Below the pieces are notes generated by a model. That model saw only the letters and a program-made list of their open reading frames with translations, was not told the origin of the DNA and did no database searches. A stretch of DNA of 64,000 nt from Octopus vulgaris (Eukaryota): NCBI GenBank assembly GCA_951406725.2, contig OX597823.1, positions 101,184,001-101,248,000 of the forward strand, given 5' to 3'. Position 1 is the stretch's first letter; every line of letters starts with the position of its first letter. Positions 1 through 63,800 of the stretch are shown here, in pieces. The translations under genes were made by a program, and so were the position numbers.

Positions 1-1102
1 TGGGGGGGCGACCCTCGAGTATCACCGGGTACCTGTGCCCAGCCATTCTCAGGAAGTCCGGGAATTTCATTTGCCCCACGGCTACCGGTGTCCACAGGGT
101 CAAGGTTGCCCTCGACCCCTGCCAGACCGCGGGAGCCACCTTCACACTTAGCAGTCTGGGTCCGCTATCCCCCAGGCCTCGCCGGATGGTCTTTTCGATC
201 CATTCCGCCTCCGTGCCCGGGGGCAGCCCACACACCCAGGCTCTTTTCACTTTTCTGCCACAATACGAGGGGAGGAACAAAATTTCCTCTCCCTCCAGTG
301 GCTCGCTAGCAAATCTGCTAGCTTCCTCGGGGGTACCAAACAGCAACCAGACCGTTGCAAATTTGCTCCCCCGAGAAATAAATTTTATAGTTGGCAGGTA
401 GTCCCCCAACTCTTTCTCTATAGTATTCTTGTCGAAGAGGGCAATGGCTCCACGCGACCTAGAATAGGTTCGTAGGACCACCGTCCTCTTCTCAAGACTT
501 TCAATCCACTGCTTTGGTGGGACGACCTCCCATTCCAAAGCGGTGGTTTCTTTTGTTGCCATGTTTTTTTTTTTTTTTTTTTTTTTAAATAAATGTATTT
601 AGAATAAAACTAAAAAACGAGAAGAAAAGGAAATCCGAAGAATGTCACAATGAAAAACGGAGAGAGTCAAATAAAGTTGAAAAGAAAGTCAAATAAAGTT
701 AAAAAGAAAGTCAAAAACACAGCAAAATCCTTTTGGCCATTTGGTACTCCCGGCCTAAATCGAACCAGGATCGCACAGCTTCCACAAAAATTGGTGTAAA
801 ATTGGTAGTTCTTCACAGCACCATACAATTTTCACAATTCGAAGACGGATACGCCCCCCAAAATTTTCTCAGCGAGAAAATATATCTGCCACATGTCGGC
901 AGAATCAGAATTCTGAATCCAGTAGGACTTCCTGCATGTAAAAAATAATTCTCAACAAAAACTCCCACTGGACCCAGAAAACAGAATCTTACCTTACATG
1001 GGGCTTCCAAAGTTTCAATTCAAGACGGCTTCAAAAGCACATCTTCACTGCTTCAGTAGCAAACACAACACTGACTCGCACATGCGCAGTTAGCAAAGCT
1101 AC
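1..1102 (-). mobile_element. ORF1-only Tx1-related retroelement, array unit A (runs off the left edge)
   Basis: Near-identical to 2980-4087. ATG at 562 opens MATKETT...RGSKFATVWLLF...YPVILEGRPP, apparently uninterrupted to the window edge; ~540-nt 5' UTR with an A-tract directly before the ATG. Confidence 0.85.
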
Positions 1103-2079
1103 TTTATTTTAAATAATTTGCCACTAGGGCAGCACACAGAGTAGTAGCTACGGGCTGGACAAGGACATTAATGGATGATGGTGGTGGTTGATGAAGATGG
1201 TGATGGGAGAAGTCGAAAGCGCCCGCCGACTTTTGCTTCTCTAAAACAATGTTTCAATAAATTTCCTCTCCCTCCAGTGGCTCGCTAGCAAATCTGCTAG
1301 CTTCCTCGGGGGTACCAAACAGCAACCAGACCGTTGCAAATTTGCTCCCCCGAGAAATAAATTTTATAGTTGGCAGGTAGTCCCCCAACTCTTTCTCTAT
1401 AGTATTCTTGTCGAAGAGGGCAATGGCTCCACGCGACCTAGAATAGGTTCGTAGGACCACCGTCCTCTTCTCAAGACTTTCAATCCACTGCTTTGGTGGG
1501 ACGACCTCCCATTCCAAAGCGGTGGTTTCTTTTGTTGCCATGTTTTTTTTTTGTTTTTTTTTTTAAATAAATGTATTTAGAATAAAACTAAAAAACGAGA
1601 AGAAAAGGAAATCCGAAGAATGTCACAATGAAAAACGGAGAGAGTCAAATAAAGTTGAAAAGAAAGTCAAATAAAGTTAAAAAGAAAGTCAAAAACACAG
1701 CAAAATCCTTTTGGCCATTTGGTACTCCCGGCCTAAATCGAACCAGGATCGCACAACTTCCACAAAAATTGGTGTAAAATTGGTAGTTCTTCACAGCACC
1801 ATACAATTTTCACAATTCGAAGACGGATACGCCCCCAAAATTTTCTCAGCGAGAAAATATATCTGCCACATGTCGGCAGAATCAGAATTCTGAATCCAGT
1901 AGGACTTCCTGCATGTAAAAAATAATTCTCAACAAAAACTCCCACTGGACCCAGAAAACAGAATCTTACCTTACATGGGGCTTCCAAAGTTTCAATTCAA
2001 GACGGCTTCAAAAGCACATCTTCACTGCTTCAGTAGCAAACACAACACTGACTCGCACATGCGCAGTTAGCAAAGCTAC
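1103..2079 (-). mobile_element. Array unit B: shortened unit (5' UTR + ORF1 N-terminus fused to 3' UTR)
   Basis: ORF 1254-1541 (95 aa) is the ORF1 N-terminus, joined to the 3' UTR at ~1257-1262 through an AAAT microhomology. Equivalent to a ~978-bp tandem duplication (280-1260 vs 1258-2240). Confidence 0.8.
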
Positions 2080-4087
2080 TTTATTTTAAATAATTTGCCA
2101 CTAGGGCAGCACACAGAGTAGTAGCTACGGGCTGGACAAGGACATTAATGGATGATGGTGGTGGTTGATGAAGATGGTGATGGGAGAAGTCGAAAGCGCC
2201 CGCCGACTTTTGCTTCTCTAAAACAATGTTTCAATAAATACATTTAATAAACAATGATTCAAATTGCATAAAAATGTTCATCAATTCTTCTCGTCAGGTC
2301 CCCGAAGCAAATTGTCTTGCCGCCTGCAGACAACTCTGCGACGACAAGTCGGGGCCTGCAAAGAGAAAGGTAAAGTCTTTCTTTTCAAAGGTCTCTGCGA
2401 CCCTTGACAAAGTATCTTCTGTTACTTTCTCCGCAGCTACCTGCGGAGGCCATAACGGACTCCTTGAGCCGACCGTGTCCTTACGCTCTCGGTCACCCAA
2501 GCCAGTCAAGAATCTTTCAACCTTCTCTCCCTTGTGGTAAAGGAGGAGAAGCATCTCCTCTTCACAGGGAGGGACCTCACACTCCTCCGTCGGTGGCACA
2601 CTTCCCACTGGCGGAGCCTTGTCCGCGGGTGGCACACATCCCACCCGCGGCTCCGTCGGCGACACAGAAACGTCAGTCGTCCGACCTCTCCTTTTTCTCC
2701 TCCTTCTTTTGGGGGAGACTGCTGACCCAGGGGACTCCGTCACCAGACACGGGGGATTGCTATCCCCCTTCGCCCCCTGAGCGTTCTTTGGCGGGCAACC
2801 ATTGTTGCTCGCCTTTCTCTTTCTTTTCGTGGAGGCAACCTCCTCCACGACTTCCATCCATCGTCTCCCCCTCCAATGAGGGGGCGGCGGGCGCCTTTTC
2901 CCCTCTTTGCTCCGGGGCACCACTACGGCCCCTGGGACAATTCTTCCTGATATGTCCGGGCTTCAGGCACAGGTGACACTTGGGGGGGCGACCCTCGAGT
3001 ATCACCGGGTACCTGTGCCCAGCCATTCTCAGGAAGTCCGGGAATTTCATTTCCCCCACGGCTATCGGTGTCCACAGGGTCAAGGTTGCCCTCGACCCCT
3101 GCCAGGCGACCGCAGGAGCCACCTTCACACTTAGCAGTCTGGGTCCGCTATCCCCCAGGCCTCGCCGGATGGTCTTTTCGATCCATTCCGCCTCCGTGCC
3201 CGGGGGCAGCCCACACACCCAGGCTCTTTTCACTTTTCTGCCACAATACGAGGGGAGGAACAAAATTTCCCCTCCCTCCAGTGGCTCGCTAGCAAATCTG
3301 CTAGCTTCCTCGGGGGTACCAAATAGCAACCAGACCGTTGCAAATTTGCTCCCCGAGAAATAAATTTTATAGTTGGCAGGTAGTCCCCCAACTCTTTCTC
3401 TATAGTATTCTTGTCGAAGAGGGCAATGGCTCCACGCGACCTAGAATAGGTTCGTAGGACCACCGTCCTCTTCTCAAGACTTTCAATCCACTGCTTTGGT
3501 GGGACGACCTCCCATTCCAAAGCGGTGGTTTCTTTTGTTGCCATGTTTTTTTTTTTTTTTTGTTTTTTTTTAAATAAATGTATTTAGAATAAAACTAAAA
3601 AACGAGAAGAAAAGGAAATCCGAAGAATGTCACAATGAAAAACGGAGAGAGTCAAATAAAGTTGAAAAGAAAGTCAAATAAAGTTAAAAAGAAAGTCAAA
3701 AACACAGCAAAATCCTTTTGGCCATTTGGTACTCCCGGCCTAAATCGAACCAGGATCGCACAGCTTCCACAAAAATTGGTGTAAAATTGGTAGTTCTTCA
3801 CAGCACCATACAATTTTCACAATTCGAAGACGGATACGCCCCCCAAAATTTTCTCAGCGAGAAAATATATCTGCCACATGTCGGCAGAATCAGAATTCTG
3901 AATCCAGTAGGACTTCCTGCATGTAAAAAATAATTCTCAACAAAAACTCCCACTGGACCCAGAAAACAGAATCTTACCTTACATGGGGCTTCCAAAGTTT
4001 CAATTCAAGACGGCTTCAAAAGCACATCTTCACTGCTTCAGTAGCAAACACAACACTGACTCGCACATGCGCAGTTAGCAAAGCTAC
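2080..4087 (-). mobile_element. ORF1-only Tx1-related retroelement, array unit C (~2.0 kb, complete)
   Basis: 5' UTR 3545-4087, ORF1 2294-3544, ~210-nt 3' UTR ending GCCCTAGTGGC...AAATAAA; no endonuclease or RT sequence. Confidence 0.85.
2294..3544 (-). pseudogene. gag-like ORF1 of unit C, two frameshifts
   Basis: Stitched from ORFs 3230-3544, 2760-3329 and 2294-2923. CCHC knuckle CHLCLKPGHIRKNC and basic KRRRRKRR tract. Lesions: one C missing at ~3351 relative to unit A, and an ATGG duplication at ~2857. Confidence 0.85.
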
Positions 4088-4378
4088 TTTATTTCATTTC
4101 ATTTAATTTGCCACAAGGGCAGTACACAGATAGTAGCTACGGGCTGGACATAGACATTAATGAATGATGGTGATGAAGTGAAGATGTTGATGGGAGAAGA
4201 CGAAAGCGCCCGCCGACCCCCGCTTCTCTAAGACAATGTTCAATGAATACATTTAGTAAAATGTTCAAAAATGTTCAGAATGTTCAAATTACATTTTTTC
4301 AGAGGAGGTAATAAACCTCCTCTTCAACATGTTTAAAAATGTTCAAAATGTTCAAAAAGTGTTTAACAATTCTCCCCG

Positions 4379-5608
4379 TCAGGTCCCCGAAGCAAATTGT
4401 CTTGCCGCCTGCAGACAACTCTGCGGCGACAAGTCGAGGCCTGCAAAGAGAAAAGTAAAATCTTTCCTCTGAAAGGTCTCTGCGACCCTTGTCAAAATAT
4501 CTTCCGTTACTACCTCCGCAGCTACCCGCGGAGGCCATAACGGACTCCTTGAGCCGACCGTGTCCTTGCGTTCTCGGTCACCCAAGCCATTAAAAAACTT
4601 TTCCACCTTCCCTCCCTTGTGGTAAAGGAGGAGAAATAACTCCTCTTCACAGGAAGGGACCTCACACTGATCCGTCAGTAGCACACTTCCTACTGACGGA
4701 GCCCTTTCCGCGGGTGGCACACATCCCACCCGCGGTTCCGTCGGAGACACAGAAACGTCAGACGTCCGACCTCTCCTTTTTCTCCTCCTTCTTTTGGGGG
4801 AGACTGCTAACCCAGGGGACTCCGTCACCAGACACGGGGGAATGCTATCCCCCTCCGCCCCCTGAGCGTTCTTTGGTGGGCAACCGTTGTTGCTCGCCAG
4901 CCTCTTTCTTTTCATGGAGGCAACATCCTCCGTCTCCCCCTCCAATGAGGGGACGGCGGGCACCTTTTCCTTTTCATGTTCCGGGGCGGCACCACGGCCC
5001 CCGGGACACTTCTTCTTAATATGTCCAGACTCCGAGCACCGGTGACACTTGGGGGCGCGTCCCTCAAGCATCACCGGATACTTGGATCCGGCCATCTTCA
5101 AGAAGTCTGGCAAAACCAGACTCTTGGCCGACTGGGTCCACAGAGTCAAGGTAGCCTTTCCTCCTTCCCAGTTAGCCGCAGGCTGCATTTTCACATTCAG
5201 GATCTTGGCGCTACCACCGCTCAGACCCCGGCGGATGGAATCTTCCACCCACTCGGGCTCAAAGCCGGGCGGCAGGCCACAGACCCATAAACGTAACAAT
5301 TTTTCCCCCTTGTAACTGGGGAGAAACAGAATCTCATCGCCCTCAATGGGCTGGCTTGCAAATTTGCAAGCTGCTTCAGCGGAGTCAAATAGCAACCATA
5401 CCGTTGCGTATTTGACTCCCCGTTGAATATGTTTAACGGCTGGCATATAGTTTGCCAGCTCGTTCACAATGGTGTCTCTCGGAAAAACCATTATGGCGTC
5501 GAGTGACTTTGAATATGTCCTCAACACCACGGTCTTTTCCTCGAGTTCGTGCAAATATTTTTTGGGAGGTGTTAATTCCCACACAGTGAATTTCTTTGCC
5601 TGTGCCAT
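4379..5608 (-). CDS. gag-like ORF1 nucleic-acid-binding protein (CCHC zinc knuckle), 409 aa
   Basis: Uninterrupted ORF with CHRCSESGHIKKKC (CX2CX4HX4C). RGVKYATVWLLF / FLPSYKG / GLPPG / YPVMLEGRAPKC align with ORF1 of the Tx1 element at 58686-59105. Confidence 0.88.
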   Translation of the reverse strand: MAQAKKFTVWELTPPKKYLHELEEKTVVLRTYSKSLDAIMVFPRDTIVNELANYMPAVKHIQRGVKYATVWLLFDSAEAACKFASQPIEGDEILFLPSYKGEKLLRLWVCGLPPGFEPEWVEDSIRRGLSGGSAKILNVKMQPAANWEGGKATLTLWTQSAKSLVLPDFLKMAGSKYPVMLEGRAPKCHRCSESGHIKKKCPGGRGAAPEHEKEKVPAVPSLEGETEDVASMKRKRLASNNGCPPKNAQGAEGDSIPPCLVTESPGLAVSPKRRRRKRRGRTSDVSVSPTEPRVGCVPPAERAPSVGSVLLTDQCEVPSCEEELFLLLYHKGGKVEKFFNGLGDRERKDTVGSRSPLWPPRVAAEVVTEDILTRVAETFQRKDFTFLFAGLDLSPQSCLQAARQFASGT

Positions 5609-5955
5609 AACGTAAAATACAACAGTTCAAAATGGTAAACTAAAATTAGACACAGAAAGGAGAATGAAAAAATGCAACAGAAGGGAAGAAATAAAATTGA
5701 AAATGGCAGTTCAAAAAAGTTTTTACAAATAAATAATAGACAGAGAAAGAGAGTTCAATTCAGACAAAGGAATTCAGTTCTTTTTTTTTCCACTTCTTCG
5801 GCCAAAAATTGTAATCCAGGCCAAATGCACTGTTGGTAAAACCCTTGGTAAATAATCCTTGGTGAAACCCTTGGTAAATAATCCTTGGTAATCCGTGGAC
5901 AACACAACGAAAATTTCAACAATAATTTTTTCAGACGGACTATGCCGCTTCAAAA

Positions 5956-6350
5956 ATACAATTTCTTTTCACTCGACACAGGCAGAAAAATTATATCCGG
6001 AGCAAAGTGGAGCCTTATTATTTGCTAAAAAATATTAAATGCTAAAAAACATTCATGCAAGTAATAAAACTTCACTAAACTCGCAAAAACATAAAACGCC
6101 AACCCGTAGTCGATTCGAACGTTCAACAATTCACGTTGAAACAACGCGACATCAATACAATTTCTTTTCACTCGACACAGGCAGAAAAATTATATCTGGA
6201 GCAGAGTGGAGCACTATTATTTGCTAAAAAATATTAAATGCTAAAAAAAAACATTCATGCAAGTAATAAAACTTCACTTCGCTCGCAAAAATACAAAATT
6301 CCTACCTTTAGTCGAGTCAAATGTTCAATAGTTCACGTTAACACGTGGCA
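5956..6350. repeat. Two ~200-bp tandem monomers in the 5' UTR of unit D
   Basis: AATACAATTTCTTTTCACTCGACACAGGCAGAAAAATTATATC... starts at ~5956 and again at ~6155, with homology across the unit. Confidence 0.85.
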
Positions 6351-6380
6351 TTTGCCGGAGCAAAAAACAACACGTCTGTC

Positions 6381-6419
6381 TGGTATGCAAGCTACTTACC
6401 ACACAGCTACTCCTGCGCC
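6381..6419 (-). mobile_element. 5' head of tRNA-derived SINE, cut off by the array
   Basis: Reverse complement GGCGCAGGAGTAGCTGTGTGGTAAGTAGCTTGCATACCA matches the first ~39 nt of the SINEs at 7195 (+) and 37290 (-). Confidence 0.85.
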
Positions 6420-7194
6420 ATAAAATGTCATAAAATGCTTAATCTCTCTTAAATTATACATCATTGTCTCAAAAACGAAAATCACATTTGTTATATTAGA
6501 CCCAGCTATATTAGGGTTAACATGAAAGTGCTCACGTTTGGTTGTAACTTTGTTCATCAGAAACTGATCTTTGAAGCCATGTTCGTCTTTGCATCTACCG
6601 CTTCTTTTCTGGAAACAGTTTTTTTTTTATGGAGCAGATCATATATCTGCCCGATCAGGACTGATCTGGGGTTAAGCAACAGAAAAAAAAGCAACTTTTA
6701 TTGCAACGTCTCTTATTTCTGGCTGCCATCAAATAATTCTTTTCGGGATAAATGGTATAAAGTATCAATTATTTCTCGGCAAGATGACTTTTGAACCACT
6801 GTAGTTATACTATGGATTCCAAAGAGATACAAGTCGATACTAGCGTGTTGTGAACCTAGGAAATCCACAGACTCTCTCTTCCGCGCAACACACACACGCG
6901 CACACACACATGCACACACACGTACGTATACACACAAATACACACACCCATACACATTCAAGATAAGGAATAACTAAGGATGTTCCATAAGCATTATCAA
7001 AACATTCAATTTCCATCGAAGATTCTAGTGGAGTGAGTTTCAAAGAGTGCATCACAAGTGATAATGAAATGGACCGTGGGTTATTTTAGAAATATAATTC
7101 AAGGTTTCAGAAAATCTGTACTGATGTCTTAAAAAGCGTTGTATTCTTAATTTTCAGAAATTTATTGTGCATCATCTCACAAAACTTAGGTATA

Positions 7195-7588
7195 GGCGTA
7201 GGAGTGACTGTGTGGTAAGTAGCTTGCTTACGAACCACATGGTTCCGGGTTCAGTCTCACTGCGTGGCACCTTGGGCAGGTGTCTTCTACTATAGCCCCG
7301 GGTCGACCAAAGCCTTGTGGGTGGATTTGGTAGACGGAAACTGAAAGAAGCCCGTCGTATATATCTGTATATATATATATATGTATGTGTGTATGTTTGT
7401 GTGTCTGTGTTTGTCCCCTCCCCAACTGATGCTGTTGTCTTTACGTCCCCGTCACTTAGCGGTTCGGTAAAAGAGACCGATAGAATAAGTACTAGGCTTA
7501 AAAAGAATATGTTCTGAGGTCGATTTGCTCGACTAAAAGAGGTGCTCCAGCATGGCCACAGCCACATTACTGAAACGAGTAAAAGAGT
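7195..7588 (+). mobile_element. tRNA-derived SINE (family 1), full length
   Basis: A-box-like TGACTGTGTGGTAAG, B-box-like GGTTCAGTCTC, internal TA/TG microsatellite, AAAAGAGTA tail; several homologous copies in the window. Confidence 0.85.
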
Positions 7589-7899
7589 ATACTCACACCG
7601 ATACCTTATAAGGTTGAGTTACGACATTTATAGAAAGAGGATGAGTGGAAAGTAGACACCCTTCTCTCCGCACATACAAACTTGGAGTAGCAATAGCACG
7701 TCACTATGATGAGATCGCGAATAACGATGAAAGGACTCTGACAAATTGATTGATTAACCGAGCAATTAATCAAACAACCGATTATTTAATTGATTAAGTG
7801 GTTAACACTTGACAAATAATAATAAAAGATGTGAAATATAACCAGTGGGCATATTTATAGCATAATGAATCTTTCAAAATCTCTATCATAAACCACGAA

Positions 7900-41059: not shown

Positions 41060-42735
41060 ACCAAATTGCAACGTTGGTAGACTCAACAGGCGTATCGATT
41101 GAGGACCCTTAGCAGAGGCTTTTTCGACAATTTTCAAACAAGATGATGGTCGTGACCCCCCACCCCATTTGATAGATCGGTACCTCCAATGCCTAGATTG
41201 GTCATCACTCGTGACGAAGTCGAACGCGTTATTTAAGGCCTCGATGTCAACAAGGGTCACAGCCCTGACGGCACACACCCACAGGTTATCAAAGCGTTGG
41301 CTCCAGTCATCTGCGAACCTTTAACACTTCTATTCAATATGTCATTGGCGACGGGTGTTGTACCTGCGGACTGGAGAACAGCGATAATCTGCCCGATTTT
41401 CAAGAAAAGGAGCCGCGAAGACCCGCTTAACTACCGACCGGTTTCTCTTATTCAATAATCAGCAAGATGTTCGAAACCATCCCCAAGAAAAGTATGTTGC
41501 TCCACCTCCAAAACACAGCCTCTATCTCTGATTCCCAACACTGCTTCGTGCCGAAGAGATCATGCTTGACCAACTTACTGGTAATGGAAGAATTGATGAC
41601 ACGTATCCTGGATGATGGTGATGCTGTTGACATCGTTTTATTGGACTTTGCCAAAGCTTTTGACTCGGTTAACCACCGCCTATTACTTGTCAAGCTTCAA
41701 GTATATAGTTTCCATCCGGATATTGTACGATGGGTTGGTTCCTTCCTCTCAGATCGCTCCTTCCAAGTCCAAGTTAACGTCTCCAGTGCGAGCAGTGGCG
41801 TGCCTCAAGGTTCAGTGCTTGGGCCGTTATTGTTTTTAGTCTTCATCAATGACTTGCCCGACGACCTTACGCAACACACCCTTCTATTTGCCGATGATGT
41901 CAAACTGGTCGCTCCTCGCAGTGATATTGATGATCTTCGTCGATGCCTCCACCAAGTTTGGAGATGGTCAAACGAATAGGACCTGTGTCTGAACGTGTCA
42001 AAGTGCTGTCATCTGCTTGTTGGCTCCTCTCCTGCAACTCAACTTGATTTCGAGTCGGGTCATCTGCTGCTGGAAAGGACCGACCAGGTAAAGACCTGGG
42101 TATCTTGGTGGATTCTTCCTTTTCGCCTTCGGTCCAATGCGTCCATGCTGCCAACAAAGTACGCGGAGTTCTGTTTTTGATTCGACGGTCATTCGGAATG
42201 CTCACAGCAGCCATATTCCTACCGCTCTATGTCACGCTGGTGAGACCCATGTTGGAGTACGGGATTCAAGCCTCTTCTCCTTATCTCCTCGAAGACATAC
42301 ATCATCTTGAAAGAATCCAGAAGCTGGCTACCCGCATGGTTCTTGGTCTCAAGCATTTGACTTATGAAGAAAGGCTGAAGACGCTCGAAAAACGACGACG
42401 CTGTGGTGATCTCATTCTCGCTCACAACATCATAAGCGGAAAGTGTAAACTCTCGAAAGAGCTGTTCTTCACTCTTGCTCCAGAGCGTCGGCTGCGGGGT
42501 CATTCCGAAAAGCTCTATGCACGATGATTTCATCTCAATCGAAGGCGAGAGGCTTTCTCCGTCCGGGTTGCGGATCCGTGGAATAAGCTGCCAGACGAGA
42601 TAGTGAAGATGCCGACGACCGCTCGGTTCAAAGTCTCTCTTGACCAGAAATAGCCTGAACTCTTTGTATGACCACCCTCCCTGTATACATAACTCCCTGT
42701 CCCCCTCCATGGCCTTGACGAAAATGACGAAAATT
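41060..42735 (+). mobile_element. 5'-truncated CR1-clade LINE (RT domain, disrupted)
   Basis: PADWRTAIICPIFKK..NYRPVSL, LDFAKAFDSVNH, GVPQGSVLGPLLFLVFINDLP, FADDVKL, LVRPMLEYG, LERIQKLATR. Confidence 0.92.
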
Positions 42736-56258: not shown

Positions 56259-57569
56259 AGGCACGGACGTGCGCCGTGCCGGGCCGGAGCATCCATGACA
56301 ATCTCCATCTGATGCGCTACATCATAGACAGAGTAGTTAAGGAACCTGGCATGGGTGGGGCCCTGATCAATTTGGATCAATCGAAAGCCTTCGATAGGGT
56401 AGACCATCGATACTTGGATGCAGTCCTGAGAGCGGCTGGTTTCGGTCCCGTCTTCCGTGGCTGGATAGCTGCTTTATACAGAGGCATCCGTTCGGTAATT
56501 CGCGTAAATGGACATCTATCGAGACCTTTCGACATTGCACGTTCGCTTCTCGTCGCTTCTATACGTATTGACTCTTGAGCCACTACTGCGGAAGCTGGCG
56601 ACTCTGAGGGGCCTCCCACGAGAATTGGGATGCGGGACGAGCGTGTCTGCATACGCAGACGACGTCACCATCATAGTGACAAGCCACGAGCACAACGAGC
56701 TGGTCGGCGAGACACTGAAAGACTACGAAGCGGTGACAGGAGCGAAAATCAACCGGGAAAAGTCAGTGGGCTTGCGGCTCGGCACATGGAGAAGCAAGCC
56801 CATGCCGTCCACCAGTACCTCCGTCGTGGGACGCTGGACGAACGGCCCGGTTGAGTTACTCGGGGTCTGGTTCGGTCCGGACCTCCAAATGGAGAAGAAC
56901 TGGAACGAGATAACGAGTAGGGTGGTCACTCTCGCCCGGCAATGCGCCGAGAGGAAACTGTCCCTAAGAGGTCGGGTGGAGGTGGCGAACACGTACATCG
57001 CGTCCATCATCAACTACTGCATGACCGTCGTACCTTGTCCCGACCCTACCATCACCAAACTAGAACGCATTCTCTTCCGCTTCTTGTGGAAAGGATGCGT
57101 CCCGATGGTCAGGCGATCCATTTGCTGTCAACACCCGTTAAAAGGAGGGCTGGGCATGCCGTGGTTGATGATGCGCAGACACACGCTGAGACTGCGACAT
57201 CTCCGGCTCTATGTAGACGACGGTGAACAGGTGTGGTCGCCGTTTGTGAGGCACGCTTTCCCGCAGCTCGTCTCCATGACCGAACTGCAGTCGTGGATCA
57301 AAAAGAGGCCGAGGAAGGGCGAATGGCACCGCGAGTGTCGCGTTGCTCTCAAGCAACTTCATATTGACATTTCTGTGATAACGATCCCTATTGATCTATT
57401 TTTTTCCTTTTCCTTTCATTTTTATCCCCCTCCCTTTTTTTCTCCTCTTTCTTTCCTTTTACGATCCCTTTTGATCGAAAACCAAACCCCCTTTTTATCC
57501 CCAAAAGAAAAGCTCTACCTTGTAATTTGTCCTGTCTGTGTGCAGCCATGTGTGGCTAATAAAGAAACA
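56259..57569 (+). mobile_element. 5'-truncated, internally deleted Tx1-clade LINE
   Basis: PGRSIHDNL..NLDQSKAFDRVDH..SAYADDVT..GAKINREKS..GGLGMP; lacks the RQG motif and the ORF2 C-terminus; 3' end GCCATGTGTGGC-TAATAAA then (ATCT)n. Confidence 0.9.
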
Positions 57570-57654
<85 letters not shown>

Positions 57655-57884
57655 GTTTATCTATCTCTCGACATGGACGGACGCTAGTCAAATGGGCTCC
57701 ACGTAAGTTGGTCACTTTGTACGTTGAAAATTGTTTATTGTCAAATATTTTGTGTTTAAAAGTTGTGCAACAACATCCACTGCAAACCTTGATTAATATC
57801 TACACAAAATTTCGCCCTTTGTGGGCAAAATTAAAAAAATTTTCATAGCCTTCGTGGTTTCATTTAGCCATTTTATTTTCAAAA

Positions 57885-60011
57885 ATGGCTACTGGTCACC
57901 ACGAGGCTGAGATGCAAGTCAAGCGTGACGCCGAGACAAAAAAGCAGGATTCCCTGTCAGCATACGCTGAACCTGACAGTTTGAATGCTACTAACACCAC
58001 CACCACTACCACCACCACCACCACCACCATCAGCTTCGACAACAGCAACAACTACAAAACAAAGGTCGCAAGGCCAAGCACCGTCACCGCCACCGATGAT
58101 TCCACCATCAACACCGACACCACCACCATAGCAGCTTCTGCTACGACAACTGCTTCCTCTGCTAACGATACCACTACCAACAACAACAAAACCAAGGTCG
58201 CAAGGCCAATCCCTGTCACCGCAACCAATGATTCTACCATCAACACCGACACCCTCCTTGACAACGCTTCCGACGTTGAGTTCCCCATACTGCTTTCACC
58301 ACAATTTCATAAAGCAGGGGAAATGGGGGAAAACAACACGAACTCAAAAACTGGTAAACAACCCGACTTCACAGTCATCTACTACTACTACAAACGACTC
58401 TGCCACAAACATCACCACCATCACCACCACCTCCACAAAAAAACAATTTCGCGGAAGCCATACGACCGAAAAGAAGAATCCTAAAATTTACTCACCAACT
58501 AATACAAGACACAAAGTCCTTGCTCACCAAAGAAGGCGACACAATGCATTTAAATATTCCACGGAACATCATAGAAGAAACACAAAAGAAGACCCACCAA
58601 AACAAAAAGACCAGAAAGCATACCTAAAGAAAAAATTGAAAAGTGCATCTCTTCCGTGTGGAAATTCCGAAATTATGTGAATTGGGGAAGTAAATTTGCT
58701 ACCGTGCAAGTTCGCTTCCATACGGAAGAACTAGCAAAAAGTTTTCAACCCTTACTCTGCGCACAGACCAGGTAATAATGGTACCTAGCTTCCTTGGGCG
58801 CAGAGTTACGAAAATTACAATAAACAAGGTGCCGCCAGTAGTGAATACCCAGTGGCTGGTATCGGCCATCTGAAGAAGCAAATATTTTAGAAGAAGCAAA
58901 TATTTTAGAAATAGCTGACATTCCAGAGGAAAGCTGGACTGGTAAAAAACTCGAAATATTGCTTCAAATCTCCCAAGAAGCAATAAACAATTTACCAGCC
59001 AGTGTTCAACTGGCAAAAGATAAAAATTGTATGTAGTGGTGGAGGGCAGGAGGCCAAGATGCTATTTATGCAACAGTGAGGCACACCTGAGATATGAATG
59101 CCCAACTGCTGTCAGAAATAGGCAACAGCAACAGCAACCACTCCCCAAACCTGGAAGGAAACCCCTGCTACCTACACCACCTTCAACTCAAAATACAGGA
59201 AAAACAGCGGACGATACAAAAACTGTTTCCCCCTCACCAACCACATGACCAAGAAGAGAATTACTCCGACATCGCAACTAACAAAGGAAACAACATCACC
59301 ACCAACATCAAAAGACAGACCAACACCAACACCAGCACCAAGAACAACAACCAAAAAACAAATAACAATGACGAAAAGACAAATTCTGCCCCTAATACCC
59401 CAACAACACAAACACCACACAAAACAACAACACCTTCTACAAACACACATATAGATACAAACGCTTTGCCTTTACCCCCTTCTGATTCGTCGGACTCGTC
59501 GTCCAACGACGAAAGTTCGACAGAATGGCAAATAGCCACAGGGAGTAAAAGGAAAATACCAAAAAAGCCCACCAAACAAGTAAGTAAAGCAGGGAGATAT
59601 TTAACTCCGGAAAGCATCCCCTTAAACAATAAAAAAAAATCAATGACCCCGAAAAACCACACACACAACTAACAGCAATAGACACGGACAATAAAAAAAC
59701 TAATGGATTACATTGCATCCAACACGAACATCTGCGAAGATGACTTTAAGACAAATAATCATCTGCGCACCACTCCACTGAAACACATAAGAATTGTACA
59801 CATAACACAAACACAACACCATACACTGAAAACCATATTTCCAAATGCAGTAGGGGGGTTTCAAAAACACCTCTCAAAAAAACTATTCAAACACCTCCTC
59901 AAAGACACTACAAAAGATGAAGAAAAAACTGAAACTTTCGAAATGAGTAAGTCACCTTCCCTCTTGCCTCTTGTCTCTTCCAGTGTAGTGTGTGAAACAC
60001 AAATTTCTTAA
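57885..60011 (+). pseudogene. Tx1 ORF1 (gag-like), multiple frameshifts and stops
   Basis: Thr-rich N-terminus; GSKFATVQVRFHTEE (58686), MVPSFLGRRVTKITINKVPP, YVVVEGRRPRCYLCNSEAHLRYECP. Confidence 0.82.
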
Positions 60012-60020
60012 ACGTCAATT

Positions 60021-63000
60021 ATGCTTAAATTAGGTTGTGTGAATGCGTGTGGCTTGGCGTCGGCTTGGAAACAAGGTTACCTTCTAAACGACATCAAGTC
60101 ACTGAACGTGGATATAGTAGCTATCAGTGAAACCAGACTCAGCAAGCCACGGGCCCTCGCGTCCATGTTTGGCGATCAATTCGACATTTATTTTTCTCCC
60201 TGTCTGCCGAACATGGGTGGTGGAGGTACCGCGGTGCTTTTTTGAAAGAGTCTAAATGTAAAAGTTAGAACAATATTCCTAAACCCGTAGGCTGGTTGTC
60301 TTGGACGTGGATGGCAGAAATGAGTGTGCATTCCGTCTGATGGCAGTTTATGCACCGTCCTTAACGGGTTGGGCGGATTTCTTTAGACGTCTAGAGGTTT
60401 TCCTGGGTACGTCTAGACCTTTACTGTTAGTAGGGGATTGGAACGCTACCTTGGACACGCATATAGATTATGTGGGAATGGATAGGAATAGAAGGGGGTG
60501 TAAGTGCCTCAAAGACCTACTCGGACGTTTCCATTTGTCTGACAGGTTACGACTCGACCATCCGAACGTGCCAACGTGGACTTGGACAAACCGCGTCGGA
60601 TCGTCGAGATCTTATCTAGATAGAATTCTATGCAGGACAGCGGATAGGGATAGTGTAGGATGTCCACAATTTAAAATAGTCAGCTACACAGATCACAAAT
60701 TTGTGACGTGTACGCTTGACTTAGATAAGACACATAGACAGGGTCCCGGTTACTGGAAACTGAACACCTCGCTCTTAGCGCGACAGGTTTACAGGAACCG
60801 GATTAGCGAGCTAATTAAGAAGGCGCTGGCGGGAGCCGTCATTAACAACCGCTGGTGGTTCGCCCTGAAAATGACAATAAAATCGGAATCAATTAGGTTT
60901 AGCAAGGAATTAGCGATAGATCGAAATAGAGTAGAGGGAGACCTGGTTAAGAAATTAGAAGAGGCACTTACCACTGGCAGCGCAACCAGCGTGCTGGCTG
61001 CGAGGATGGCCCTCAACCAACACCTCAACGCCAAGCACGAAGGTTGCGTCGTCAGAGCTAACATGCGTGCCTTAAGGAACGAAAGGAACGAAGCCGCGCG
61101 AGAGGCCTGAGTAGCGGAGGCGCAGCGTGGCAACAGAGCCACCATTCGGTCTCTAATAGATCAACAGGGATGCAGTTTACTCGAACCCGAAAGGATGTGT
61201 GAGGCCTTTCAACAGCACTTTGCTCGACTGTTTGGTGCGAGTGGTGGGTCGGAACGCGGGATGGATTTCAGTGCCTACCTGACCGACCTGCCGCGGCCCT
61301 CAGCAAGAGAAGTGGAGTGTTGTGAAAGTCCCATCACAGCCGCTGACGTGCGGGATGCGATGGCGGGCTGCGCGAGGGATAAGTCGCCTGGATTGGATGG
61401 TTTACCCTACGAACTGTATTGTCAAATGCCAGACTTGTTTGGCGACCTCTTGGCATCAGTCTACTGCAACTGGCAACAAAACGGGAGAATCCCCGGTTTC
61501 GTGAGCCGAGGTGCAGTGACGTTGCTGAAGAAAGACCCAAACAAGGGTAATTTTATAGATAATTTCAGGCCCATCACTCTGCTCAACGTAGATTTGAAAA
61601 TTTTGGCCAAACTAATAGCCGAGAGATTGGCGCTTGTCATTGGTAAACTGGTCGACAGGGCGCAAACATGCGCCGTGCCGGGCAGAACCATACATGACAG
61701 CCTCCATCTGATGCGCTACATTGTGGACAGGGTAGTTAAGGATCCTGGCATGGGTCGACCATCGGTACTTGGCGGCCTTCCTCAGGGCGGCTGGCTTCGG
61801 TCCCGTCTTCCGAAGCTGGATCGCTGCCTTGTATAGCGGCATCCGATCGGTGATTCGGGTGAACGGCCACCTGTCGAAACCGTTTGACATCACGCGTTCG
61901 GTCCGTCAGGGGTGTCCCCTGTCGGCGCTTCTGTATTTATTGACTCGAGCCGCTACTGCGGAAGCTGGCGACACTGAGGTGCATCCCACGGGAACTGGGT
62001 TACGGGACGAGCGTGTCGGCATATGCGGACGATGTCACCGTCATAGTGTCGAGTGAAAAACATCCAGATGATAGGTGATACACTAAGAAAATACGAAACG
62101 GTGACGGGAGCGAAGATTAACCCGGAAAAGTCAGTGGGTTTGCTACTCGGCACCTGGAGAAGCAAGCTAATGCCGTCCGACTGCGGCTCAATAGTGGGAC
62201 GCTGGATGGATGGACCAGTTAAATTGCTCAGGGTCTAGTTCAGTCCGGACCTCCAAATGGATAAGAACTGGGACGAGATCACGAGTAGAGTGGTCGCTCT
62301 CAGCCAAACATGGGCCGAGAGAAAGCTATCTCTAAAAGGTCAGACGGAGGTGGCGAACGCGTACATCGCATCCGTCATCGATTACCGCCTGACCGTCGTG
62401 CCTTGTCCCGACGCCACTATCACCAAACTGGAACGCATACTCTTCCGCTTCCTGTGGAAGGGTGGCGTTCCAATGGTGAGGAGGTCCATTTGCTGTCAAT
62501 ATCTGTTGAACGGAGGACTGGGCATGCCGTGGTTGATGATGCACTGAGACTACGACATCTCTGGAACTTCATCGATGGCGGTGAACAGGTGTGGGCGCCG
62601 TTTGTGAGGCGCGCCTTCCCGCAGCTCGTCTCACTGACCGAACTGCAAACGTGGATCAAGAAGAGACCGAAACTGGGCGATTGGCACCAAGAGTGTCGCC
62701 AAGCTCTACAGCAGCTCTGCCGACCGGGGTCAAACTTGTGCAACTTACAAACGACTAAAGCGTTCTATAGAGGACTAGTGGAGAGGAGGTCCGACGACAC
62801 ACTCGGGGCAAACCTGGGCGTCGACGAGAAATTCCTAACCCGACTGTTCAGGACGACGTTCGGGCCGGGGCCTATGGATAACTTCCAGAAATCCCTGGCT
62901 TGGCAATGCTATCGAGACGCACTACCTGTTCGAGAGAAGAGCTACAGGCACGGTTCGAAAACCATCACCGGACCGACCTGCCCGAGATGCGGTCAGAGCG

Positions 63001-63398
63001 ACGAAACCGTTCTGCACGCACTCGTGCAGTGTCCAGATATTTCAGAGCTGTGGACCTTCGTCGAACAGCTGTTGTCGCGTGTAGGACGGGCCCGCTTATC
63101 GGCCAAGTCTATCGTGAATATCGTTCCACCACCTTCCTTTAAACGGGAAGGGAAAACGGTTTTCGTTACGCTGATGGCTATGGCGAAAGAATGTGCGTGG
63201 TGGACGCGTTTGAAAGGACTGCAAACAAACACCTTCCTCTCTGGTCAGTCTCTCGTCAACTTTTTCAGGTACCACTTGAAAAGGAGGATGAGAATAGAGA
63301 GGAAGGCTTTGTCGAACGATTGTTTTAATAAAAAGTGGGTAAAAGTGGCAAAAATGGTCAGTATGAAAGACGACACTATTTTAAGCGTAAATCTGTAA
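60021..63398 (+). pseudogene. Tx1 ORF2 (APE endonuclease / reverse transcriptase), disrupted
   Basis: NACGL, ISETR, VYAPS, GDWN, SYLDRI, TDHK, GYWKLN, KSPGLDGLPYELY, NFRPITLLNVDLKILAK, VRQGCPLS, YADD, CPRCGQSDETVLHALVQC; several stops; LDQSKAFD block deleted at ~61755. Confidence 0.93.
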
Positions 63399-63515
63399 CC
63401 AAAAGAGACAACGAGAGGTAAGGCGACTTACTCATGTGTTCATTTTCGAACTGTCTGAGGTGACCTTGGTCTTTTTTGTAGGTTTTTCTTTCCAGGGCTA
63501 CACCTAAACTGTGAG

Positions 63516-63553
<38 letters not shown>

Positions 63554-63700
63554 TTTTATACCCCACACAACCCACAGATCCCTATTGATCGAACGTTTTT
63601 TTTCTTTGTGTCCCATCCATCCCACCTCGAAAAGAAAAAAACTCTACATTGTATTTCGTCCATTTTTATTGTGTTTAGCCCTGTGTGGCCACAATAATAA

Positions 63701-63800
<100 letters not shown>

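Follow-up and report, generated by a model that had tools for sequence, protein, structure and literature searches.

Several LINEs of the Tx1 clade are known to insert into other transposons: Tx1L into Tx1D in Xenopus and, in crocodilians, Tx1-Mar into Mariner-N4_AMi, Tx1-8_Crp/Tx1-4_AMi into LTR elements, and Tx1-9_AMi into Harbinger, U2 genes and microsatellites being further targets described for the clade (PMC4494074). The system from Octopus vulgaris presented here, which was met in a window of 64,000 nt on C10, 101,184,001 to 101,248,000 (the whole stretch of DNA first described), resembles these elements in consisting of a two-ORF APE-RT LINE at a fixed position in an interspersed repeat, with stacked insertions and with non-autonomous partners that appear to be moved to the same site; as in the case of Kibi/Koshi, it also has relatives flanked by microsatellites. 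Unlike in the transposon-targeting Tx1 LINEs, the target is the head of a SINE, offering more than 57,000 dispersed sites and used at one base and with a single orientation; where those LINEs have SINEU as partners, the partners here are families coding for ORF1, and the full-length copies carry a 5' copy of the target.

Non-autonomous LINEs reduced to ORF1 have been described as HAL1 in the L1 clade, HeT-A in the Jockey clade, and Ag-Sponge in the CR1 clade (PMC5786205), and HeT-A forms mixed head-to-tail arrays with its helper (PMC4700185). The octopus units share with all three an ORF1 under selection and a LINE-type 3' end in the absence of ORF2, and with HeT-A the head-to-tail arrays. However, their ORF1 is of the Tx1 type (RRM-RRM-CCHC) and seems to have arisen at least twice; moreover, in contrast to HeT-A, an internal target set by an endonuclease takes the place of chromosome ends, and the putative promoter lies at the 5' end rather than in the 3' UTR.

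A strict single site within a multicopy sequence is also used by R2 and R1 (rDNA), Keno/Utopia (U2 snRNA), and Dada (tRNA/snRNA genes). The 5' joins of R2 use upstream target homology. Contrary to all these elements, the octopus LINE is aimed at a dispersed parasite and not at a functional RNA gene, and the homology, lying downstream of the nick, would rebuild the site; it also differs from R2 and Utopia in holding an APE instead of a restriction-like endonuclease. In R2-type systems, the 5' join can be templated by target sequence that the RNA contains (PMC5035012), and such a role is conceivable for the target copy of the octopus elements as well. L1-Tx1 elements have been reported from cephalopods, in passages that mention no targets (PMC8967140, PMC10294476). 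Tx1 elements aimed at other transposons are already known, and our literature search returned no SINE-targeting LINE and nothing on the octopus system, whose families may already be catalogued in Repbase; a SINE head as a target was not found in print.

The array holds nine ORF1-only units over 17 kb, namely A, B1 to B5, C, B6, and a B/D chimera, as seen once 20 kb left of the window had been added. Each unit measures 1.0–2.3 kb and comprises a 5' UTR, one ORF of ~410 aa, and a short 3' UTR, ORF2 being absent from all nine. The host and the part of the array inside the window are made up as follows:

6398..6419, minus strand: first 22 nt of the host SINE head, with the A-box-like motif TGGCTGTGTGG (here TAGCTGTGTGG); the join point was placed from truncated copies.
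7195..7600, plus strand: intact SINE copy of the same family, serving as the reference, its target being empty (T|A at 7216|7217).
6382..6397, minus strand: 5' copy of the 16-nt target, AAGTAGCTTGCATACC, which differs from the host 3' copy (..GCTAACC) and is common to an independent insertion on C23.
4090..6397, minus strand: unit A, an ORF1-only element of 2308 bp with a ~200-bp tandem duplication in its 5' UTR (5955-6137 / 6154-6339).
4074..4089, minus strand: junction between A and B1, holding the extra T peculiar to this array, AAGTAGCTTTGCTAAC (exact motif match).
2082..4089, minus strand: unit B1, ORF1-only, 2008 bp, with a frameshifted ORF.
1105..2081, minus strand: unit B2, 977 bp, with an internal deletion.
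1..1104, minus strand: 5' part of unit B3, with an intact ORF1 of 414 aa, continuing left past the window.

The insertion point lies between 6398 and 6397 on the minus strand (GTGGT|AAGTAG). According to the preliminary description, made from the window alone, the array joins the first 39 nt of a SINE. The match itself is real: the minus strand from 6419 to 6381 (GGCGCAGGAGTAGCTGTGTGGTAAGTAGCTTGCATACCA) agrees with the heads of the intact copies at 7195 (plus strand) and ~37290 (minus strand), and an 18-mer of the head has three matches, with 0.04 expected by chance. However, only 22 nt (6419–6398) surely belong to the host; the following 16 nt (6397–6382) copy the target and are of mixed origin, and base 39 already belongs to the element. 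The internal junctions that it had put at ~1102, ~2079, and ~4087 were 2 nt off and otherwise correct, AAGTAGCTTTGCTAAC occurring exactly three times, with starts at 4089, 2081, and 1104 on the minus strand (0.04 expected), and the motif GTGTTGT(G/T)TTTGCT that it had pointed out does occur in units A and B close to their 5' end. It had also set a leftward extension beforehand as a test, predicting that the rest of the SINE would come after the last 3' tail, and this is what was found: after B3 come B4, B5, C (with a 408-aa ORF1 of a distinct family), B6, and the B/D chimera, and the tail of this ninth unit is followed by AAGTAGCTTGCTAACCAGCCACATGGTTCCGGG and SINE positions 27–399, with 84% identity to the copy at 7191 (C10, from ~101,173,336 downward). 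The SINE body thus begins ~10.66 kb left of base 1. As a separate observation, unit A and the insertion on C23 (L036:1353-1415) share, besides the GCATACC variant of the target copy, an uncommon AT before the head (6420-6421; usually TA), which may be due to chance or to an RNA that included the whole head.

The host is a candidate for the tRNA-derived octopus OR2 / CORE-SINE. Its putative A-box-like and B-box-like motifs, found by eye, each deviate by one base from the tRNA consensus; ARAGORN detected no tRNA in the SINE, and two copies gave no Rfam tRNA match at E<=10. In the octopus, OR2 has been described as a CORE SINE, and tRNA-SINEs dominate the repeats (PMC4758252, PMC8967140, PMC10294476). 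The 2.8-Gb genome holds 57,456 exact empty target sites, in which A (28,847) and T (28,609) are equally common at target position 13. Diverged families with the 5' copy AAGAAGCTTGCTTCC (L150, L159, L161, L173, L174, L183) lie within a matching third SINE subfamily, which suggests that the targeting system has tracked several SINE waves.

Genome-wide, the elements keep to this one site. A search with the 5' UTR of unit A gave 48 matches, and 30 loci, which collapse to 23 distinct 5' junctions, were all on site (18 after a SINE head and five after the tail of another unit). With its 3' UTR (41 matches, 30 examined), 16 of the 30 3' ends run into the target and the SINE body, three of them being one triplicated segment, 13 into the next unit, and one elsewhere. 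A flank-blind sample was taken from the first 100 of 1,553 tail motifs genome-wide (control pattern, two). Seventy-eight of these tails are at the target, 66 followed by target and SINE body and 12 by the target and something else (in nine cases another unit), and the 22 off target comprise 13 that lead into trinucleotide repeats and nine others (four with homology to units); all 14 autonomous tails in the sample are on target. The enrichment for this SINE position that the preliminary description had asked of the copies' flanks is therefore evident, since the chance of hitting the target is ~1e-5 per insertion (57,456 exact empty sites in 2.8 Gb), and exact tail-target-body junctions number 469 (209 + 260). 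Its central proposal, fixed-site targeting just after the A-box-like motif, is borne out by the 23 5' junctions, the sampled tails, and the SINE body at the left end of the array; insertion at one base and in one orientation is observed, and we regard it as virtually certain.

The presence of a head upstream and a body downstream of nearly every full-length copy would also be expected without any targeting, if SINE and LINE formed a composite that was copied as a unit, or if the LINE had captured a SINE head to serve as its Pol III promoter and was copied together with it. However, 5'-truncated copies of all lengths, from 51 to 5,439 bp, sit between SINE head and body, and one young family (~98% identical) is found in different SINE subfamilies; these two facts rule out a hitch-hiking composite. 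In addition, at least six distinct families share the single site, and T runs would stop Pol III within 31–117 nt. An origin without targeting is accordingly regarded as extremely improbable, and targeted insertion is retained.

The LINE that would provide the enzymes was found by searching for tail, target, and SINE body, which gave 209 loci; among the first 30, an ORF2-type end is present in 11. Complete copies measure 5.45 kb and hold ORF1 and ORF2; in one of them an ORF2 of 1133 aa is intact, with APE (PF03372, E 2e-11), RT (PF00078, E 4e-27), and zf-RVT (PF13966, E 1e-8) domains. This LINE and the ORF1-only units have only ~45 nt in common, at the 3' end, which in unit A reads:

4109..4121, minus strand: 3' hairpin TGCC-N5-GGCA, also present in the autonomous LINE; an A-rich end comes after it (..AAATA at 4090).

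The hairpin GCC-N5-GGC is present in 52 of 56 distinct tails, many of which were collected through that very motif, and one family shows a compensatory pair. The units themselves, having ORF1 only, are non-autonomous and depend on a separate LINE for their movement, and we infer that this particular L1/Tx1-type LINE is the helper because tail and site are shared (the ORF1s of A/B/D being only 26% identical to its own).

The closest relative of ORF2 among solved structures is L1 ORF2p (E 1e-63), far above R2, which fixes the L1 group only. An assignment to the Tx1 clade is likely, judging from the Tx1-like anatomy. ORF2 combines APE, RT, and a C-terminal zinc motif without RNase H, which is likewise true of L1; ORF1 is of the RRM + CCHC type and not Transposase_22, a type linked to Tx1 in non-mammalian animals (PMC5203782); and the target preference (78 of the first 100 tails, autonomous tails 14/14) lies above the threshold of the Kojima 2015 rule (>20% of flanks). 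In a tree of RT sequences with 36 database matches, the helper groups with two Argonauta/NCBI proteins and with the microsatellite-flanked relative from the window (support 0.995). A word search with the full-length ORF2 gave nothing at E<=1e-30 and the ESM Atlas only generic APE-RT clusters; RT-region and HMMER searches found relatives, nearly all unnamed, with close homologues in Argonauta.

Relatives of the helper stand in tandem in the window itself, on the plus strand, as a truncated copy (56261-57570) and a full-length, frameshifted one (57671-63703); their ORF2 pieces are mostly 56–75% identical, (ATCT)n lies on both sides, and they end in GCC..GGC..AATAAA, so that they likely represent a microsatellite-targeted sister family. 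Tails that have this hairpin and run into ATT/ATC/TTC/GTT repeats (L119, L121, L124, L126, L136, L144/L149, L155, L158, L160, L172, L182, L185), several of them at loci with ORF2 ends 41–48% identical to the helper's, probably belong to sister families as well. At 41524-41910 (plus strand), a weak RT similarity (28%, E 9e-9) marks an unrelated LINE fragment.

The protein left to the non-autonomous units is represented in unit A by the following feature:

4379..5608, minus strand: intact ORF1 of 409 aa, under purifying selection, with two predicted RRM domains, a CCHC knuckle, and a tail that is basic and of low complexity.

ORF1 proteins match zf-CCHC, above the curated cut-off in the autonomous ORF1 only, and fall into CCHC/ZCCHC3-like clusters of the ESM Atlas at 0.90–0.92. 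A fold model of the N-terminal part (pLDDT 80, from an alignment of 20 rows) has tandem-RRM proteins as its best match (E 6e-5, TM ~0.3). Between the ORF1-only families A, B, and D, dN/dS is 0.10–0.21, which indicates that these elements have long been mobile as ORF1-coding units. Mobile as such, with ORF1 only and a LINE-derived 3' end, they work like HAL1; they are not HAL1, since the mammalian-type ORF1 (Transposase_22) is absent and theirs is of the CCHC type. Identity to the ORF1 of the helper amounts to 26% for families A/B/D/E and 38% for C, which suggests at least two separate origins of the ORF1-only families. Contigs from four sequencing runs, whose RNA status is a guess, cover unit A; neither transcription nor its start can be deduced from them. 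Derivatives lacking an ORF also exist at the target site, namely a 106-bp element made of the first 63 and the last 43 nt of D (L065) and an internally deleted copy of family A within a triplicated segment of 12.5 kb on C23 (L036-L038).

The 16-nt target copy at the 5' end is highly likely to be of mixed origin, one part being a true duplication and another part being carried by the element. Among the first 100 matches to a pattern for autonomous 5' ends, which overlooks most of those preceded by a tail, 56 places were obtained, 53 of them autonomous (52 after a head, one after a tail) and three unrelated. At position 13, these at least 53 autonomous 5' ends have A in 49 cases and T in three, the base being absent in one. 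A tail to pair with the 5' end was found in 26 of 39 short stretches, 13 holding none and the three T-type 5' ends staying unpaired; in all 14 pairs with T in the 3' target, the 5' copy has A (one of the 14 lacks a SINE body after the target copy). The family A variant TCTTACC and the GCATACC of unit A recur at unrelated loci, the latter on C23, and GGA replaces GGT before the join in four of 18 head junctions compared to 203 of 57,659 empty sites (0.35%). Taken together, the 14 A-type copies, the recurring variants, and the excess of GGA argue that the RNA carries target sequence, and the distal part of the copy in unit A would be element-borne because it differs from the host 3' copy and is shared with C23.

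These observations weigh against reading the 16-nt repeat as an ordinary target-site duplication, with an element that lacks any target copy and starts after the repeat, as neither A-type copies at 14 of 14 T-type targets, nor variants recurring at unrelated loci, nor the excess of GGA would be expected from it. Nevertheless, true duplications do occur: in truncated copies, the match to the copy's own 3' target is 0, 1, 2, 2, 6, 6, 7, 9, 10, 11, 15, and 16 nt long, and the last two of these matches extend to private variants (this list omits the old copy L120, where a mismatch at position 7 interrupts the 16-nt match, and L029 gave no pair). Furthermore, the extra T of the window array was copied from the local target, and the three autonomous 5' ends with T at position 13, two of which hold further private variants, carry target-type variants, so that all 16 nt may sometimes derive from the target. 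An ordinary duplication as the whole explanation is therefore very unlikely, and the mixed origin is preferred. The suspicion of the preliminary description that the junction motif is element-borne holds for the distal part (14/14 pairs) and fails as a full account, given that truncated copies duplicate 0–16 nt of their own target and that the extra T is specific to the locus and not to family B; its idea that the target is regenerated at insertion is supported.

One-base insertions at the junction were more frequent on T-type targets (10/14 vs 5/22, Fisher p=0.006, in a mixed sample), which is suggestive, and a tree of 29 autonomous 5' regions, bearing on whether such indels are inherited or recurrent, revealed mosaic copies. 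Family D and the autonomous family (e.g. L097, L108, L111) also hold, ~29 nt in from the 5' end, what looks like an older, second relic of the target (TTGCTTACC, TTGCTTCY); RGACG lies 29 nt beyond it, which suggests that 5' ends were extended in modules of 29 nt. At L059 and L143, the junction holds an inverted copy of the SINE head, possibly through fold-back or template switching to flanking DNA during integration.

The extra T also serves as a marker of how arrays grow. An extra-T junction after a tail is found at 12 places genome-wide, five in the window array, six in one array on C5, and one on C3. The C5 array reads head, six B units, D, body, and has the extra T at all seven 5' junctions and none in the host target; in the window array, the extra T is present in C and B1–B5 and missing from B6, the last unit, and the outermost unit A. 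B units of other arrays do not carry it. Its spread outward across families indicates that it arose at an inner unit and was copied outward, as predicted for insertions at the head junction with duplication, and a tandem pair of autonomous copies shows the same outward passage of a junction variant. Arrays thus likely grow outward on the head side, and the earlier idea of growth by repeated insertion holds, by the polarity of the extra T in two arrays, for the step in which an existing unit receives its first neighbour, if not for later ones.

Re-targeting alone does not fully explain the arrays, since stacking exceeds its expectation: another unit follows nine of the 78 on-target tails compared to at most 2% by random re-use, the units of one array not being independent. 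This excess, the runs of five or six B units in the window array and on C5, and the fact that B1, B3, B4, and B5 are mosaics of each other would all fit arrays built at the same target mainly by single events or local DNA expansion, through an RT that reaches the 5' end of one RNA and continues on the 3' end of another (the completed cDNA resembling a nicked target at its end), multi-unit read-through RNAs, or unequal crossing-over. However, inheritance through RNA or jumping would not hand the extra T of an inner unit that belongs to a different family (C here, D on C5) on to every B unit outside it, with B units in other arrays lacking it, and B4 differs at six positions from a unit on another chromosome compared to 10–16 from its neighbours, B6 being an older sublineage (42–48 differences). 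Single events as the main source are rather unlikely, and head-side growth is preferred; local preference, template jumping, or unequal crossing-over probably contribute, and local expansion may be partly responsible for the rows of almost identical B units.

Transcription from the Pol III promoter fragment of the SINE, which the preliminary description had entertained, is unlikely and was rejected: no B box was found within the first 270 nt of any unit, and every unit has a run of four or more T 31–117 nt in, where Pol III would stop. A Pol II promoter of the DPE type is suggested by the following motif:

6371..6377, minus strand: AGACGTG, DPE-like motif of unit A with a putative function, at position 21 in family A and at 29 or 58 in most other families.

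In 106 filled heads, which include truncated copies and some degraded SINEs, RGACG is at position 29 in 20 and at position 58 in 27, despite different spacers, and at 20–21 in family A (14 cases); family C has no DPE-like motif within 70 nt, and family B shows an initiator-like TCAGT 28 nt before RGACG. Insect LINE promoters hold a DPE with the core CGTG at +28 to +32 (PMC4748587). A Pol II start at the insertion point, i.e., the nick, is a candidate for families with one module that we put slightly below an even chance; families with two modules might just as well start internally, near +30, which would leave their 5' copy without an explanation. Families B, C, and D also bear GCGCATG-type motifs at +16 to +28, which we presume to be NRF1-like.

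Putting these elements together, it is quite probable that the nine ORF1-only units were placed one after another at one base of the SINE head by the endonuclease and RT of the autonomous L1/Tx1-type LINE. ORF2p would recognise the 3' hairpin, nick the bottom strand at GTGGT|AAG, and prime on the A-rich end of the RNA, the top strand being cut up to ~16 nt further on. The RNA would begin with its own 16-nt target copy, probably from a DPE-type Pol II promoter starting at the insertion point, and the end of a full-length cDNA would anneal to the overhang, whose proximal ~10 nt would usually be kept and whose distal part would be rewritten from the cDNA; truncated cDNAs, lacking the 16-nt match, would join after trimming of 0–16 nt. 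Top-strand cut, annealing, and rewriting are proposed here from junction patterns only. The new head junction would again be a complete target on which later copies can land, extending the array on the head side, and local expansion may lengthen runs of one family.

More tentatively, this would make the SINE head a landing pad that renews itself, the Pol II start coinciding with the LINE's own cut site and each full-length RNA starting with a target copy that splints the 5' join and rebuilds the site. Independently born ORF1-only families would live off this pad and stack outward, and the 5' copy would have been updated as SINE subfamilies changed, as suggested by the relics of older copies 29 nt inside the 5' ends of two families.

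The SINE head joins the strict targets of LINEs with hundreds of cases instead of a handful, and the LINE is a parasite of a parasite with ORF1-only dependants of its own. Due to the tens of thousands of variant targets, each insertion records which bases at the 5' join derive from the chromosome and which from the RNA, which bears on a long-open step of LINE integration, the top-strand cut and 5' attachment, and the junction variants provide a polarity marker for the growth of head-to-tail arrays. With an intact ORF2 and a substrate of only 16 nt, the endonuclease lends itself to direct testing, and the conserved ORF1-only families bear on the idea that ORF1p must come in cis.
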